Source of the DNA: Promethearchaeati archaeon
GTDB lineage: Archaea; Asgardarchaeota; Heimdallarchaeia; JABLTI01
Direction of reading: 5' to 3'
DNA: 20,906 bases
NCBI GenBank assembly: GCA_013166835.1
Contig: JABLTI010000042.1
Location: forward strand, 1 to 20,906
In this document: positions 4,927 to 10,287 of the stretch, one piece after another
How positions within the stretch are numbered: the stretch's first letter is position 1
Layout: every line of letters begins with the position of its first letter
Translations under genes and position numbers: made by a program
Notes under the pieces: model-generated
The model's input: only the letters and a program-made list of their open reading frames with translations
What the model was told of the DNA's origin: nothing
The model's database searches: none

Positions 4927-6069
4927 ATGCAATATCGTCCATTAGGAAAAACAGGAATAAAAGCATCTATTCTAGGTTTTGGAGCCATGAGGTTACCAAC
5001 CTCCACACCTGGTGATCCAACATCAATAATAGAAGATGAAGCTATCAAAATCATAAGACAAGGAATTGATGGGGGAATAAATTACATTGATTCTGCTTAT
5101 GTCTATCATAGAGGAAAAAGCGAGGTTTTGGTAGGGAAAGCTCTCAAAGATGGTTATCGAGAGAAAGTACATATCATGACTAAGAATCCTGTGAGATTAG
5201 TTAATACAACTGAAGACTATCGCACATTATTAGATGAAGAATTGAAAAGATATGATACCGAGTATATCGATGTTTACCTTTTCCATGGATTAAAGAAAGA
5301 AAGCTATGAAGAAAAAATCTTACCACTCGAAATAGTAGATGAAGCAAAAGCAGCTAAGAAAGAGGGACTAATAAAACATATTGGCTTATCATCCCATGAT
5401 AAACCCGAAAATGTAATTGAATTATTAGATACTGGAATTTTCGAAGCCATATTATTACAATACAATATTATTGATAATTCATATGTTGATGCAATCGCAC
5501 ATGCTGCAAAGAAGGGAATAGGCGTTTGTGTCATGGGTCCTGTAGCAGGAGGAAGGTTAGCATTAGAACCGCCGAAAGATTTAGTTGATTGCTTAACCCC
5601 AGGAGAAGAAACTTTCATAGATCTAGCATTCAAACATGTTTGGGACAATCCAAATGTCACTGTAGCACTCTCAGGAATGGGTGATGCTGATATGGTGACG
5701 AAAAATCTCGCGCTAGCCAATGCAGAAGTTGTTACCCTTACTCCTGAAGAAAGAGAGCGAACAAAGAAGATTGATACTACTTACAAACAATTATCTGATG
5801 TAATTTGTACTCAATGTGGTTATTGTGAACCATGCGAACAGGAAGTAAACATAACTCGAATTCTGAAACAATTAATTCATTGGGAAGTATATGGTTGGGA
5901 CATGGCGAAACGCTACTATCAAATGATTGGCAACTCCCCAATTGCTCCGGGGAAACAAGCTCCTGCTTGTATTGAATGTGGTGATTGTGAAGAAAAATGT
6001 CCTCAAGGTATTCCTATTATTGAAAAGCTAAAAGAAGCTCATGAAATTCTAGGTGCTAAAGAAAATTAG
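4927..6069 (+). CDS. Aldo/keto reductase with C-terminal 4Fe-4S dicluster domain
   Basis: MQYRPLGKTG, LGFGAMRLP, IDSAYVY, MTK, YLFH; CTQCGYCEPC and CIECGDCEEKCP; RBS GAGGT. Confidence 0.93.
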   Translation: MQYRPLGKTGIKASILGFGAMRLPTSTPGDPTSIIEDEAIKIIRQGIDGGINYIDSAYVYHRGKSEVLVGKALKDGYREKVHIMTKNPVRLVNTTEDYRTLLDEELKRYDTEYIDVYLFHGLKKESYEEKILPLEIVDEAKAAKKEGLIKHIGLSSHDKPENVIELLDTGIFEAILLQYNIIDNSYVDAIAHAAKKGIGVCVMGPVAGGRLALEPPKDLVDCLTPGEETFIDLAFKHVWDNPNVTVALSGMGDADMVTKNLALANAEVVTLTPEERERTKKIDTTYKQLSDVICTQCGYCEPCEQEVNITRILKQLIHWEVYGWDMAKRYYQMIGNSPIAPGKQAPACIECGDCEEKCPQGIPIIEKLKEAHEILGAKEN

Positions 6070-6969: not shown

Positions 6970-8106
6970 ATGCATTACAGAACACTTGGTAAAACAGGAA
7001 TCAAAGTTTCAATACTTGGATTTGGAGTATTACGATTACCTATGAAAGGAAGAGGAAAAATTGACGTAGAGGAAAGCATCAAAATAATAAGAAAAAGCAT
7101 TGATAATGGAATAAATATCGTTGATACTGCGTATAATTATCATAATGGAAAAAGTGAGATTATTCTTGGTCAGGCGTTAAAGGATGGCTATAGAGAGAAA
7201 GTAACTCTAATAACTAAAAATCCTCTTTGGGAAGTAAAGAAAGCAGAAGATTTCGATCACTTATTAGATGAGCAACTAGCAAAATTAGAGGTAGATTATC
7301 TGGATATCTACCTTTTTCACAACATAAATAAAAAGAGATACGATGAAGTAATTCAGGAATTCAATCTTTTCGATAAAATGAAGGAAGCCAAGAAGAAGGG
7401 GAAAATAAAACATATTGGTTTCTCATCTCATGATACACCCAAGAATATCAAAAAGTACATTGATGAAAATGAATTCGAAGTAATGTTGGTTCAGTATAAT
7501 TTCGTAGATCCAATTAATGAGGAAATAATTCAATACGCACAGGAAAAAGGTCTTGGAGTCATTCTTATGGGCCCATGTGGTGGTGGAAGACTAACAAATG
7601 AACCAACAGAGGAAATGAAGCAATGGTTGACACCAGGTAAAACAAATTTCTCTGATTTAGCCTTCAAATTCGTGTGGTCTAATCCAAATGTTGACATAGC
7701 ACTTTCCGGAATGAGCTCTGAGAAGATGGTTGATGAGAATATAGCATTAGTATCTAGTGATAACTATCAATTAAATGAAGAAGAAAAAGAACACTTACAA
7801 AAAGTTGCTCAGAATTACAGGGAAACATATGATATTAACTGCACTCAATGTGGCTATTGTGATGATTGTCCCCAAGAAGTAAATATCAAATTTATATTCA
7901 AACAACTCATGGTCTCAAGGGATCCTCTAAGAATGCATGGTGCAAGAGCAAATTATCGAGGAATAGGATTAGCTAAGAGATTTCCGGGGAAGAACGCACT
8001 TGCATGTGTTGAATGTGGAGAATGCCTTGAAAAGTGTCCGCAAGAAATCCCCATCATTGATCGTCTTAAAGAAGCTCACTCTATCCTAAAAGAAAGAGAT
8101 CTATGA
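6970..8106 (+). CDS. Aldo/keto reductase with C-terminal 4Fe-4S dicluster domain (close paralog of 4927..6069)
   Basis: MHYRTLGKTG, LGFGVLRLP, VDTAYNY, ITK, YLFH; CTQCGYCDDCP and CVECGECLEKCP. Confidence 0.93.
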   Translation: MHYRTLGKTGIKVSILGFGVLRLPMKGRGKIDVEESIKIIRKSIDNGINIVDTAYNYHNGKSEIILGQALKDGYREKVTLITKNPLWEVKKAEDFDHLLDEQLAKLEVDYLDIYLFHNINKKRYDEVIQEFNLFDKMKEAKKKGKIKHIGFSSHDTPKNIKKYIDENEFEVMLVQYNFVDPINEEIIQYAQEKGLGVILMGPCGGGRLTNEPTEEMKQWLTPGKTNFSDLAFKFVWSNPNVDIALSGMSSEKMVDENIALVSSDNYQLNEEEKEHLQKVAQNYRETYDINCTQCGYCDDCPQEVNIKFIFKQLMVSRDPLRMHGARANYRGIGLAKRFPGKNALACVECGECLEKCPQEIPIIDRLKEAHSILKERDL

Positions 8107-8128: not shown

Positions 8129-8788
8129 TTAGAATTTTCTTTTCTTCTTAAACTTGCGATTTAATAAATTTCCAATATGATACCCTGCATAAGAATAACT
8201 ATACGGTTTTTTTCTCTCTGGATGTTCACTTTCATCTTTGAGATATTTCATTGCTAGTTCTCTGTGTTCCTTTCTAAATTTTTTAGCATTCTCCTCACTA
8301 AGATAAATAGAACCGACAGCAATTTCCCCTAATTGGTCATAACGTTTTGTCACATCATCATCTAGGTTATTATAATAATTTTCCAGTATAAATTGAAGAG
8401 TATTAACTAATTCAATAGTGTTCATTTTAGTGATATCTTCGTACATATTACTAAGTTCTTTCTGTCTTTTTGGAGTTTGTTCATCAAATACTCCTTTGTT
8501 GAATTGTTCTCTTATTTTTTGAGAGAGATTTAATTCAATTGGTCTATAGTATCTTGTTTTGCTTCCTGGTTTTGTTATTTCATCTATCAACTCACTATCG
8601 AGTAATTTTTGAATATGATGATGAATGGTTGACTTGCTCTTGCTCAAATAGAAACTTAACTCATCTAAAGTAATATCTCTGTAAACGACTATAAGAAACC
8701 AAATGCTTAGCCTAGTTTTATTACTAATTACTTTAATGTAATTCTTAATGGTATCATTTGCGTTGTTTTGTGAATTCCCAAGTGTCAT
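8129..8788 (-). CDS. ArsR/winged-helix transcriptional regulator with C-terminal extension
   Basis: ISNKTRLSI...ITLDELSFYLSKSKSTIHHHIQKLLDSELI...KTRYY is an ArsR-like wHTH pattern. Confidence 0.85.
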   Translation of the reverse strand: MTLGNSQNNANDTIKNYIKVISNKTRLSIWFLIVVYRDITLDELSFYLSKSKSTIHHHIQKLLDSELIDEITKPGSKTRYYRPIELNLSQKIREQFNKGVFDEQTPKRQKELSNMYEDITKMNTIELVNTLQFILENYYNNLDDDVTKRYDQLGEIAVGSIYLSEENAKKFRKEHRELAMKYLKDESEHPERKKPYSYSYAGYHIGNLLNRKFKKKRKF

Positions 8789-8849
8789 TTTTCTCTCAGT
8801 TTATTATTGTTTTTTTTATTTATAAAAATATACGAAAATCTGATATTAA

Positions 8850-8865
8850 TTTAGAATATTCTAAA
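8850..8865. promoter_or_regulatory. Perfect 16-bp palindrome TTTAGAATATTCTAAA, putative operator
   Basis: In the divergent intergenic region; GAATATTC core recurs at 8917-8924 and a related AGAAATATTTCT at 9180-9191. Confidence 0.55.
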
Positions 8866-8881
8866 AATATCGTTTTTTTCG

Positions 8882-8894
8882 GAAAATTTAAATA
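8882..8894 (+). promoter_or_regulatory. Putative archaeal BRE/TATA promoter for small ORF 1
   Basis: GAAAA followed by TTTAAATA (8887-8894). AT-rich background lowers specificity. Confidence 0.45.
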
Positions 8895-8967
8895 TTCGAT
8901 TTTCTAAGTAAATATAGAATATTCCTATACCTTCCACAATAAAGATTTCCAAAGGGGTAGGACTGTG

Positions 8968-9090
8968 ATGAAGATGTCGAAGACAAAAAGTAAGAAAAAA
9001 AGTAAACTGCGTCTCGATCGCAAGAAAGTCAAGGAATTGGAAAACTCAGGAATATTATTGGGACTATATTATGTCGATGGGCTGATTTAG
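8968..9090 (+). CDS. Small basic ORF 1 (40 aa) MKMSKTKSKKKSKLRLDRKKVKELENSGILLGLYYVDGLI
   Basis: Purine-rich GGGGTAGG upstream; ATG 8968 to TAG 9090; resembles small ORF 4 (KSKLxL...RKxVK). Confidence 0.55.
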   Translation: MKMSKTKSKKKSKLRLDRKKVKELENSGILLGLYYVDGLI

Positions 9091-9157
9091 TCCTATATAT
9101 TCTTGAACCCGCAATTTCTTTATTATGGTCACAAGATACATATTTCCAAGTAAATAA

Positions 9158-9171
9158 GAAATATTTATATA
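9158..9171 (+). promoter_or_regulatory. Putative BRE/TATA promoter for small ORFs 2-5
   Basis: GAAATA followed by TTTATATA (9164-9171), about 25 nt before a run of hairpins. Confidence 0.45.
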
Positions 9172-9328
9172 ACATTGTGAGAAATATTTCTTAACAGTAT
9201 GGGACTGTTGTCTGAAGAATACTTCAGTTTGTAGTCGACTTAGAACTCGGTTTTTGAGAGTTTCAACTAATGAACCTTTGAGAGATGTGTGAAAGTACAC
9301 AGAGGATACTCTCGAAGGAGTGGATGAA

Positions 9329-9415
9329 ATGACACGCAAAAAAAATTCAATCAAATGTGAGATTAAGAAAGAACTGGCTATACCAGGTATGAAAACACAT
9401 CTCATCCAGAGATGA
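9329..9415 (+). CDS. Small basic ORF 2 (28 aa) MTRKKNSIKCEIKKELAIPGMKTHLIQR
   Basis: RBS GGAGTG at 9317-9322, 6 nt before ATG; ends TGA TAA. Confidence 0.5.
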   Translation: MTRKKNSIKCEIKKELAIPGMKTHLIQR

Positions 9416-9454
9416 TAAGAAAAAAGTAGATTAAAAATTAGGAATGAATAAGAA

Positions 9455-9559
9455 ATGATACAGAAAAAGAACAAACAAAGAGATCATTACACAACCAGTA
9501 TTGAGAAAATAAGGAATGATCTTGGCTATCTGGCAGTAAGATCATTGAGAACCGCCTAG
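9455..9559 (+). CDS. Small basic ORF 3 (34 aa) MIQKKNKQRDHYTTSIEKIRNDLGYLAVRSLRTA
   Basis: ATG 9455 to TAG 9559; weak RBS (AGGA); same MxxKKN start as ORF 2. Confidence 0.45.
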   Translation: MIQKKNKQRDHYTTSIEKIRNDLGYLAVRSLRTA

Positions 9560-9581
9560 ATATAATATTGAGGTGATGTAA

Positions 9582-9683
9582 TTGGAAAAAAGTAAGTTAG
9601 TATTAAGAAACCAAATACGAAAACAAGTTAAACATGATATAGAAAAAGCAAGAATGAAAATGTTACTCCTGAATGGAAGATAA
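9582..9683 (+). CDS. Small basic ORF 4 (33 aa, TTG start) MEKSKLVLRNQIRKQVKHDIEKARMKMLLLNGR
   Basis: Strong RBS GAGGTGA (9570-9576) 5 nt before TTG; open to TAA 9683. Confidence 0.6.
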   Translation: MEKSKLVLRNQIRKQVKHDIEKARMKMLLLNGR

Positions 9684-9825
9684 TGAAGTAAGACAAAAAA
9701 TTAACTCAGATGATAACAATGGAAAAACTGTCGCGAGAATTCAAAAACCTAATTCAGCATTTAACAAAAAGCATGCAAAGCAATTTACGAGTGTGGAAAA
9801 ACTTGAGAAGATGTTACAAAAATGA
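9673..9825 (+). CDS. Possible small ORF 5 (50 aa) MEDNEVRQKINSDDNNGKTVARIQKPNSAFNKKHAKQFTSVEKLEKMLQK
   Basis: Overlaps the ORF 4 end by 11 nt (possible coupling); hydrophilic composition; no RBS of its own. Confidence 0.3.
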   Translation: MEDNEVRQKINSDDNNGKTVARIQKPNSAFNKKHAKQFTSVEKLEKMLQK

Positions 9826-10001
9826 ATGCTTCATTTCTCAATTCGGAGTGGATGAAGTCAGTAATCAAGTTTGGACGCCTGCTAAAATGGGATTCAAACT
9901 TGATATACTTTTATCTGAAAACATTGGGATTCTAGAGATTAGAGGTTGGGATTTAGATTTTGCAGAAATTTATTCAAATTTAGATCCACCTTAGTTAATC
10001 T
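9803..10001 (+). ncRNA. Candidate structured RNA region (three consecutive long hairpins)
   Basis: TTGAGAA 9803-09/TTCTCAA 9835-41; ATCAAGTTTGGA 9864-75/TTCAAACTTGAT 9893-9904; GGATTTAGATTT 9949-60/AAATTTAGATCC 9976-87, extended by AGGT/ACCT and AGATTAG/TTAATCT. Mismatches are G.U on the + strand. Confidence 0.4.
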
Positions 10002-10038
10002 AAGTATCTGTTTACTGCTGAATAAAGAATTATTAGTT

Positions 10039-10287
10039 TCATTTTATTAATCTAAATTTTACATTGGGTGCTACACTACAAGCGGTGAATTTCCCACAAC
10101 CAGAGCATTTGCTGGGTGGACAAGAAACATCAAGTTCTTCTGGTTCAACTATTTCTAAATAACCCATTTTCACAAGTTGATCTAGAAGCATTATTGCAGT
10201 TCCCTCTTCTATATCCAACTTTCTAGAGATAGTTGCAGTATTTGCATCTCCACCTGCACGTAAATAATCTAAGAGTTTTGATATCAT
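10039..10287 (-). CDS. feoC: FeoC-like winged-helix Fe-S protein
   Basis: wHTH (ISRKLDIEEGTAIMLLDQLVKMGYL) plus Cx4CxxCx5C (CPPSKCSGCGKFTAC); in the feoB operon. Confidence 0.8.
   Translation of the reverse strand: MISKLLDYLRAGGDANTATISRKLDIEEGTAIMLLDQLVKMGYLEIVEPEELDVSCPPSKCSGCGKFTACSVAPNVKFRLIK

Follow-up and report, generated by a model that had tools for sequence, protein, structure and literature searches.

What is encoded in the apparently empty stretches of Asgard archaeal genomes, which belong to the closest known relatives of eukaryotes, is a question raised directly by contig C95 of a metagenome-assembled genome (MAG) of a Promethearchaeati archaeon of the Heimdall group (3.56 Mb, 85% complete, about 32% G+C). 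The window, meaning the whole stretch of DNA that was analysed, is this entire 20.9-kb contig, and it contains a gap of 1.25 kb (8789-10038) without an open reading frame (ORF) above the usual 60-residue list cut-off. The gap is bordered on one side by a gene for an ArsR-type winged helix-turn-helix (wHTH) regulator (8129-8788, minus strand) and on the other by a FeoC-like gene followed by FeoB. A first-pass annotation, made from the sequence alone, had proposed that four co-oriented short ORFs, and possibly a fifth, form a cassette of diverged paralogous peptides controlled by the adjacent regulator. Our findings point, with moderate confidence, to repressor-gated micro-protein operons whose products would bind a partner or nucleic acid. 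The biology of Asgard archaea has been read nearly entirely from annotation in which genes of fewer than about 30-50 codons are passed by, and the case described here, in which an 'empty' gap appears to hold conserved genes, illustrates what such annotation can miss.

Conserved short ORFs in the gap

The following ORFs of the gap carry the argument.

8965/8968-9090, plus strand: ORF1, 41/40 aa, with a basic N-terminal half and a conserved hydrophobic C-terminal end
9320/9329-9415, plus strand: ORF2, 31/28 aa, a diverged relative of the ORF4 family
9455-9559, plus strand: ORF3, 34 aa, with an invariant C-terminal half
9582-9683, plus strand: ORF4, 33 aa, TTG start, a member of a multi-copy family of basic, predicted single-helix proteins
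9710-9994, plus strand: a hypothetical protein of 94 aa, probably the last gene of the second transcription unit

All four short ORFs were confirmed on the plus strand as first described, together with the two ribosome-binding sites named for them, GGAG 8 nt ahead of the ATG at 9329 and GAGGTGA 5 nt ahead of the TTG at 9582. Conservation of frame and start in relatives, which had been proposed as a check, was found at the same locus in three genomes of the genus (G007, G002 and G003, the last split over two contigs) at about 91% nucleotide identity. In an alignment of these with the source genome, which is included in the counts, ORF1, ORF3 and ORF4 are intact in four of four genomes and ORF2 in three of four, its stop being displaced by one codon in G007. 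ORF4 shows two distinct nucleotide changes over the three relatives. Over a wider sample ORF1 is intact in six of six species at 73-88% amino acid identity, with the changes concentrated in the N-terminal half and the C-terminal end invariant. In G004 and G005 the regulator and a 42-aa ORF1, whose C-terminal half is almost unchanged, lie in the same divergent layout, and ORF2-4 are absent from this regulator/ORF1 locus. A further relative, G009, encodes an ungapped ORF4 orthologue of 33 aa (52% identical, 85% similar) that starts with ATG in place of the window's TTG; the second promoter described below is kept there, and a 34-aa ORF of 26% identity occupies the ORF3 position.

The fifth gene of the array is predicted to be the 94-aa ORF at 9710-9994 and not the frame at 9673-9825 that had been put forward. 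The latter has no start codon, and has internal stops, in G007 and G003, and is therefore not a gene. The 94-aa ORF is intact in three of three relatives and has 19 database homologues, all unnamed or called 'hypothetical protein', none with a Pfam domain and one from a Heimdallarchaeota MAG. In G009 the ORF4 orthologue is followed by a 92-aa ORF without detectable relation to the 94-aa ORF (E 0.36). A 136-aa ORF on the minus strand (9064-9474) is packed with stops in G007 and G002.

Against G007, the ratio of non-synonymous to synonymous substitution rates (dN/dS) is 0.27 for ORF1 (5 synonymous and 6 non-synonymous changes), 0.23 for ORF2 and 0.25 for ORF3, compared to 0.09 for the flanking reductase gene and 0.21 for the FeoC-like gene; the value for the 94-aa ORF is 0.65. 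In the wider family of ORF4, orthologous pairs have dN/dS of 0.11-0.48, the median pN/pS (the same ratio taken from uncorrected proportions of differences) is 0.53 over 630 pairs, and codon-position entropy among 36 distinct sequences is 1.03, 0.68 and 1.30 at positions 1, 2 and 3, in other words third above first above second. A tetramer resembling the Shine-Dalgarno (SD) sequence precedes 20 of 22 micro-ORF starts, as opposed to 10.4% of random start triplets, and among paralogues of ORF1 the start codons GTG and TTG interchange at an identical position. Taken by sequence, then, ORF1 to ORF4 are predicted to be conserved protein-coding genes beyond what chance would provide.

Several points weigh against this conclusion and need to be set beside it. 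Every dN/dS of a small ORF rests on few changes, 4-7 of either kind, and some micro-ORF start codons were picked with the SD sequence in view. Five nearly identical pairs of the ORF4 family differ by non-synonymous changes only, and several paralogue pairs of the family have dN/dS above 1; the profile that defines the family was made from the source genome's own 13 copies. ORF2 is frameshifted in G002 by two single-base insertions. The synonymous rate (dS) of ORF4 is 0.056, versus 0.24-0.52 in its surroundings, with one substitution in 99 nt relative to G007, and this near-absence of synonymous change could mean a function at the RNA level, instead of or beside the protein. The dS of the 94-aa ORF against G007 (0.11) is also unusually low, less markedly than that of ORF4, and the low dS over 9582-9994 points to an added nucleotide-level constraint or to recent exchange between species.

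The almost unchanging synonymous sites of ORF4 and the frameshift of ORF2 in one relative would likewise fit the view that what is conserved here is a non-coding RNA or a piece of regulatory DNA, with the ORFs as by-products of a purine-rich, lysine-codon-like composition. K/E/R-rich frames do arise readily from A/G-rich sequence, and the plus strand is purine-rich across the gap, a trend shared by the coding strands of the genome. This view has to contend with 47 public protein clusters and 85 genomic copies of the ORF4 family that preserve length, start, stop and a protein-level consensus, with an ORF4 orthologue that is ungapped at 52% identity, with start codons that switch type and keep position, and with codon-position and SD statistics that favour coding. 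Rfam also offers no match, whether at E <= 1 on 8600-10200 or at gathering score over the whole window, and no tRNA genes were found. We consider a non-coding origin of the ORFs extremely improbable. A search of sequencing runs listed none of RNA that contains the locus. Two sequencing runs labelled metatranscriptomic, but flagged as probably DNA, yield one contig each (9355-9692 and 9550-9916) from a relative of 90-95% identity; these contigs come without strand, ends or level, and therefore no inference on expression is drawn from them.

A multi-copy family of the genus

ORF4 belongs to what profile searches indicate is a multi-copy family of proteins of about 29 residues, confined to the genus. 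The first lead was a DNA search of the source genome, whose one extra match was a tandem pair of 28-aa ORFs resembling ORF4. Iterated profile searches of all six-frame segments gave 13 solid copies at 10 loci in this genome, plus a weak fourteenth candidate (E 6e-3). These members are 28-34 aa long, nearly all with an SD-like sequence ahead of the start, and share the consensus M-x2-KK-x2-IK-x-QIKK-D/E-x-E-x-A/T-R-x-K-x-AL-x-TG-R/A/C-stop, in which conservation peaks at the C-terminus, immediately ahead of the stop.

At E <= 0.001, the profile of the 13 copies matches 12 of 83 genomes in the class and 12 of 400 in the phylum. The carriers are 11 of 11 genomes of the genus, with 1 to 15 copies each, and one genome (G044) among the 389 others of the phylum; outside the genus nothing but G044 matched among the 400, so no link to Thorarchaeota micro-peptide families emerges. 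Of the 85 matches in these 12 genomes, 84 are free of internal stops, and the open frames that contain them measure 29-55 aa without exception. Since the profile missed the G009 orthologue of ORF4 itself, these are minimum counts. The G044 copy, in another family of the class, stands alone on a short contig and is an orthologue of the source genome's C175 copy, preceded by the same leader motif; it may reflect a mis-binned contig or a transfer. Among 1.84 billion representative proteins, 47 clusters match the profile at the same threshold, some of them less than 30% identical to ORF4, and 46 are 28-58 aa long. The single exception, of 86 aa, has the motif at its very end, preceded by an internal Met; its source is a contig of 722 nt, and the gene call was therefore probably extended too far. 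Ten of the 47 clusters were looked up, and none bears a name.

The motifs that the first-pass annotation had noticed between the four peptides hold up for one pair. ORF2 scores 13.2 bits on the ORF4-family profile, a value reached by none of 1000 composition-matched shuffles (mean 0.3, s.d. 2.8), and is therefore a diverged relative of ORF4; an ORF2-like peptide of contig C143 scores 7.7 bits, reached by 9 of 1000 shuffles. For ORF1 and ORF3 the resemblance is no better than that of shuffles, 527 and 797 of 1000 of which reach their respective scores, and profile-profile comparison with the ORF4 family returns probabilities of 15.5% and 17%. The idea of a single diverged paralogous cassette is accordingly supported for ORF2 and ORF4 and not for the rest, with ORF1 in a family of its own, ORF3 unplaced and the array divided over two predicted transcription units. 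ORF1 represents a separate small family, with three copies in the source genome. Members were found in 7 of the 11 genomes of the genus, and the 72 further genomes of the class yielded none. The order ORF1-like, ORF2-like, ORF4-like is repeated on contigs C21 and C143, and cassettes in general carry two to four different micro-ORFs in series.

Reference collections add little. Neither Pfam nor NCBIfam gives a credible match for ORF1-4 or the 94-aa ORF, PADLOC and PHROGs give none for the peptides, and a PDB sequence search with the family profile returns one meaningless match (E 0.088). The ESM Atlas holds no usable match for ORF4 and merely sub-threshold leads for the 94-aa ORF, and a word-index protein search with the 41-aa form of ORF1 found nothing. 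As a separate observation, all 13 source-genome copies, at the 10 loci on C95, C21, C143, C59, C253, C123, C138, C247, C37 and C175, lie on the contig plus strand, a run with a chance of about 0.002 if contig orientation is random; the contigs have no general strand or purine bias, and the copies in relatives are found on both strands.

Predicted properties of the micro-proteins

The AlphaFold2 model of ORF4, built on an alignment of 43 sequences, is one helix spanning residues 2-31 (predicted local distance difference test score, pLDDT, of 91). Across the 13 copies the net charge is +4 to +8, the mean Eisenberg hydrophobicity -0.18 to -0.57 and the helical hydrophobic moment 0.01-0.29, the best case of which is still reached by 228 of 1000 shuffles. 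The sole hydrophobic stretch consists of about 7 residues at the C-terminal end. Negative hydrophobicity together with amphipathicity no greater than that of shuffles argues against membrane insertion or pore formation.

These properties bear on the suggestion that the peptides are membrane-active or toxic, either as products of type I toxin-like loci or as leaderless bacteriocin-like peptides aimed at competitors. The loci would suit such a role in being multi-copy, free-standing and intergenic, with promoters of their own and, for the second unit of the window, a long leader, and the peptides are cationic and of about 30 aa. In all 13 copies, however, a transmembrane stretch is absent, mean hydrophobicity is negative and amphipathicity does not exceed that of shuffles; an ABC exporter or immunity gene adjoins none of the 10 loci, and there is no match in PADLOC or PHROGs. 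Toxins or bacteriocins of this kind thus seem highly unlikely to us. More broadly, Pfam scans of the 20 window ORFs and 60 neighbours detected next to the 10 loci neither an exporter or permease nor a protease, a modifying enzyme or a gene for immunity, and no radical SAM, YcaO, lanthionine or similar enzyme beside a cassette. The peptide N-termini are basic, without a hydrophobic signal-like stretch. The earlier judgement that a ribosomally synthesized and post-translationally modified peptide is not supported was based on the lack of an adjacent modifying enzyme or exporter, and these scans extend it from the window to the nine other loci.

Two predicted transcription units and a divergent regulator

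The regulator gene and the predicted control elements, with their putative functions, are as follows.

8129-8788, minus strand: ArsR-type winged-helix regulator, 219 aa, predicted to be helical in its C-terminal half; Pfam HTH_5
8818-8837, no strand assigned: A/T-rich block, probable TATA box of the regulator gene, (nearly) invariant in a six-species alignment
8851-8864, no strand assigned: palindrome TTAGAA-TA-TTCTAA, putative element, (nearly) invariant in the same alignment
8875-8904, plus strand: probable ORF1 promoter/operator, an inverted repeat TTTTCGRA ... TTCGA around a TTTAAATA box at 8887-8894
9143-9195, plus strand: predicted second promoter, TTTATATA at 9164-9171 between 12-nt inverted-repeat arms at 9155-9166 and 9182-9193
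9196-9328, plus strand: presumed 5' leader of the second unit, about 130 nt, containing the motif AGAACTCGGTTTTTGAG

On this basis the gap is predicted to comprise two transcription units, ORF1 on the one hand and ORF2-3-4 with the 94-aa ORF on the other, the second with its own promoter near 9164-9171. The inverted repeat of the ORF1 promoter is conserved in six of six species, and in G004 and G005 its palindrome is perfect. The second promoter, separated from ORF1 by a T-rich stretch, has a direct repeat (D1) in common with the promoter region of ORF1, and its own arms make up inverted repeat I3. A pattern search finds this second type of promoter once in the source genome; the block is conserved to G009, G001 and G008, where it leads other micro-ORF cassettes. 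The leader that follows has a folding z-score of -2.17, and its 3' hairpin pairs with part of the SD sequence of ORF2. The motif AGAACTCGGTTTTTGAG (9252-9268 in the window), which could form a small hairpin, also occurs ahead of unrelated micro-ORF cassettes, including those on C175 (24649-24682) and in G009 and G044, and four genomes in all carry it in such leaders.

Assignment of the regulator rests on a Pfam HTH_5 (PF01022) match over residues 40-69, at 23.3 bits relative to a curated cut-off of 22; the NCBIfam metalloregulator and MsvR models score far under their cut-offs, and in PADLOC and PHROGs only the wHTH part of Csa3 models is matched. An HHH run at residues 56-58 is invariant in six orthologues. 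Among solved structures the best sequence match is PH1932 (E 3.9e-6), over the wHTH portion only, and the first, second and fourth Foldseek matches are 1uly, 2cwe and 2p4w, at TM-scores of 0.26-0.30 and root-mean-square deviations of 15-19 Å, for a model of mean pLDDT 60.9. The divergent pairing of regulator and ORF1 is maintained in six of six species examined, which answers the synteny check suggested in the first-pass annotation. Control of the array by this regulator is, in our view, plausible for ORF1 in light of the divergent pair and the conserved inverted repeat; for the second unit we infer it.

The regulator gene itself is far more diverged than its surroundings. Its orthologues in the six species are 50-67% identical in amino acids, and against G007 it retains about 62% nucleotide identity (58-75% in 100-nt bins) and 55% amino acid identity between flanks of 88-97% nucleotide identity. 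Its synonymous sites are saturated (pS 0.74) and its dN is 0.31, where the adjacent aldo-keto reductase gene has a dS of 0.52 and ORF1 of 0.24. The borders of this divergence are sharp and coincide with the gene ends in comparison with L003 of G007, L004, L010, L006 and L007. The pattern suggests that an old, divergent allele has taken the gene's place, and not merely that the protein has evolved fast.

Such a locus invites the interpretation that a micro-protein, ORF1 especially, is the ligand of the neighbouring regulator's C-terminal helical domain, in a peptide-sensing switch that would serve feedback or act as a strain-specific recognition pair, on the model of peptide-regulator cassettes in Bacillota. 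The preserved divergent pair, the resemblance of the sharply bounded divergence to that of specificity loci, and the variation of ORF1 in its N-terminal half beside an invariant C-terminal end are all in keeping with it. The regulator, on the other hand, has no peptide-receptor domain of a known kind, tetratricopeptide repeat (TPR) families giving no match at E <= 0.01; a signal peptide, exporter or protease was not found nearby, the peptides are long and highly basic, and members of the ORF4 family also occur without an adjoining regulator. ORF1 is also better conserved (73-88% identity) than the regulator (50-67%), so that the two display no visible co-diversification, which counts against such a switch as well. 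We judge it unlikely. An intracellular version with allele-specific pairing, in which the micro-protein would dock on the C-terminal domain of a Phr-like repressor and the hyper-divergence of the regulator would stem from diversifying selection on recognition, seems to us distinctly unlikely. Were it true, the genus would carry a set of private regulator/micro-protein circuits, a regulatory logic not described in archaea.

Regulators and promoters of the other cassettes

Regulators recur at other members of the family. Five paralogous proteins of about 210 aa (36-47% mutual identity, one matching HTH_5) are encoded divergently upstream of four cassettes, one on C21, two on C143 and one on C247. 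In each of these cassettes TTCTCA-N6-TGAGAA is followed by a TATA box and this in turn by a third TGAGAA, and such combined sites number five genome-wide, the fifth at the promoter of the C247 regulator itself. Palindromic sites are thus present by sequence at both target and regulator promoters, the arrangement expected of Phr-type systems. The window regulator bears only a remote similarity to these 210-aa proteins (E 0.029 for the best local match) and has the same build. Overall, an ArsR-type wHTH gene adjoins 6 of the 10 family loci (C95, C21, C143, C247, C138 and C37), in a 3.56-Mb genome with only 21 HTH_5 matches.

There are also findings that speak against regulator-gated expression as a general rule. 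Four of the 10 source-genome loci have no adjoining wHTH regulator, and in other genomes 13 of 17 loci, each covering about 3 kb, are without a regulator of the two modelled families, the remaining 4 having one of the 210-aa family. Of the 11 members of that family, 6 face larger genes, not micro-ORFs. These six lie on C208, C215, C77, C210 and C81; some of their targets look like membrane proteins or transporters, and the C77 promoter has similar TTCTC/GAGAA half-sites. The cassettes on C59, C123 and C253 share a promoter and have no regulator alongside. Theirs is a dedicated block, CAACTTGTGACCTC ... AAAAGTGAATC followed by a TATA box, at C59 21727-21778, C123 3552-3590 and C253 41371-41422 and nowhere else in the genome; on C123, a bactofilin-domain gene begins 39 nt after the micro-ORF. 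In G001 (L013, 1240-1620) and G008 (L014, reverse strand), a promoter resembling the second one of the window precedes a trio of other micro-ORFs (36, 35 and 36 aa), with two members of the 210-aa regulator family flanking the trio and a hairpin closing it.

The ends of the cassettes bear on whether the small ORFs are leader or arrest peptides, translated only to control the next gene (here the 94-aa ORF) through C-terminal residues that act within the ribosome. Family conservation is greatest at the C-terminus, right ahead of the stop; at 3 of 11 cassette ends (C95, C123 and C138) the last micro-ORF is separated by less than 40 nt from the start of a co-directional gene, with the 94-aa ORF starting 27 nt after ORF4; and the nucleotide sequence of ORF4 is unusually constant. 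Yet the next gene is convergent at 6 of the 11 ends, so many cassettes are free-standing and a pure leader role is not general, though it could still apply to ORF4 and the 94-aa ORF. Of the remaining ends, one shows a hairpin with a 122-nt gap and the other runs off its contig. The cassettes hold two to four different micro-ORFs in series, and in G009 the ORF4 orthologue is succeeded by an ORF in which no relation to the 94-aa ORF was detected. We find a leader function very unlikely as the explanation of the system.

We return to the repressor-gated operons introduced at the outset, which in our assessment have about an even chance of being correct. In this model, unit 1 would consist of ORF1, divergent from an ArsR/Phr-like regulator, and unit 2 of ORF2, ORF3, ORF4 and the 94-aa protein. 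The neighbouring regulator would bind the inverted repeats framing the TATA boxes and silence both units, and a signal of some kind would release it, as with Phr in Pyrococcus. Each micro-protein would be a single strongly basic, non-amphipathic helix with a short conserved hydrophobic C-terminal cap just ahead of the stop. In what is the weakest step of the model, it would bind an acidic partner stoichiometrically in the cytoplasm, be this a nucleic acid, the ribosome or a larger protein, and it would be neither inserted into the membrane nor secreted. We acknowledge that the nature of this target is pure inference, which counts against the model.

Neighbouring genes and significance

On one 8-kb stretch of the window lie three paralogous aldo-keto reductase genes (262-1284, 4927-6069 and 6970-8106), a 4Fe-4S dicluster domain being fused to each, and interspersed among them are genes for two SHOCT-like proteins and an aminoglycoside 3-N-acetyltransferase-family gene. 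Neighbouring contigs encode Ras/Arf/Roc small GTPases typical of Asgard archaea.

For now, the importance of our findings lies mainly in defining the system. A family of 1-15 copies per genome has no Pfam or NCBIfam model and no solved structure, and is unnamed in the records looked up. Its recurring pairing with dedicated wHTH regulators and palindromic operators would constitute an experimentally tractable regulon, and the sequences provide a concrete set for better small-gene annotation in archaeal MAGs. Among the papers listed by searches of one open-access library, none dealt with micro-proteins of Asgard or Heimdall archaea.

Comparison with known systems

Transcription factors that adjoin or control the gene for a tiny protein are familiar from MntR-MntS and Rgg/SHP. 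The divergent layout of the latter is similar to that of the window; the window peptides have no homology to either and are much more basic, not hydrophobic, and in contrast to Rgg/SHP and RRNPP-type cassettes the window encodes neither a TPR receptor nor export or processing machinery. Type I toxins and leaderless bacteriocins are products of about 30 residues from free-standing multi-copy intergenic loci, without a leader peptide. The window peptides share their size, this type of locus and the lack of a leader peptide, but they differ in that they form neither a hydrophobic nor an amphipathic helix by prediction, their loci are without genes for immunity or export, and PADLOC gives no match.

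On the side of the regulator, the closest likeness is to Phr, the heat-shock regulator of Pyrococcus furiosus (PDB 2p4w), and PH1932 (PDB 1uly, 2cwe), both two-domain ArsR-like repressors of archaea, with which it shares a length of about 200 aa, an N-terminal ArsR-type wHTH and, by prediction, a helical C-terminal half. The presence of palindromes at promoters is also alike, and in the window conserved inverted repeats frame the TATA boxes. Phr is described as a palindrome-binding negative regulator of inducible genes (PMC10746257). The likeness has limits, in that the sequence match is confined to the wHTH, the structural match is a poor one (TM 0.26-0.30, on a model of pLDDT 61), the operators are not the same, and the targets here would be micro-protein operons with no tie to heat shock, not chaperone genes.

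On the side of the products, small proteins of Methanosarcina mazei offer the nearest parallel, namely sP26 with glutamine synthetase, sP36 with an ammonium transporter and MtrR with the Mtr complex (10.1101/2020.05.06.080432, PMC10714827, PMC13370731). They are reported to measure a few dozen residues and to act by binding a larger protein, and by analogy this would be the most likely mode of action in the window too. The M. mazei proteins have no sequence relation to those of the window and are single genes tied to one pathway, whereas a genome may hold as many as 15 members of the family described here, set in operons of two to four micro-ORFs that frequently adjoin a dedicated regulator. 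The window contributes the pairing of ORF1 with a regulator family different from the 210-aa one, the four-peptide array in two predicted units, figures for the distribution of the whole family, and a biophysical case against an action on membranes.

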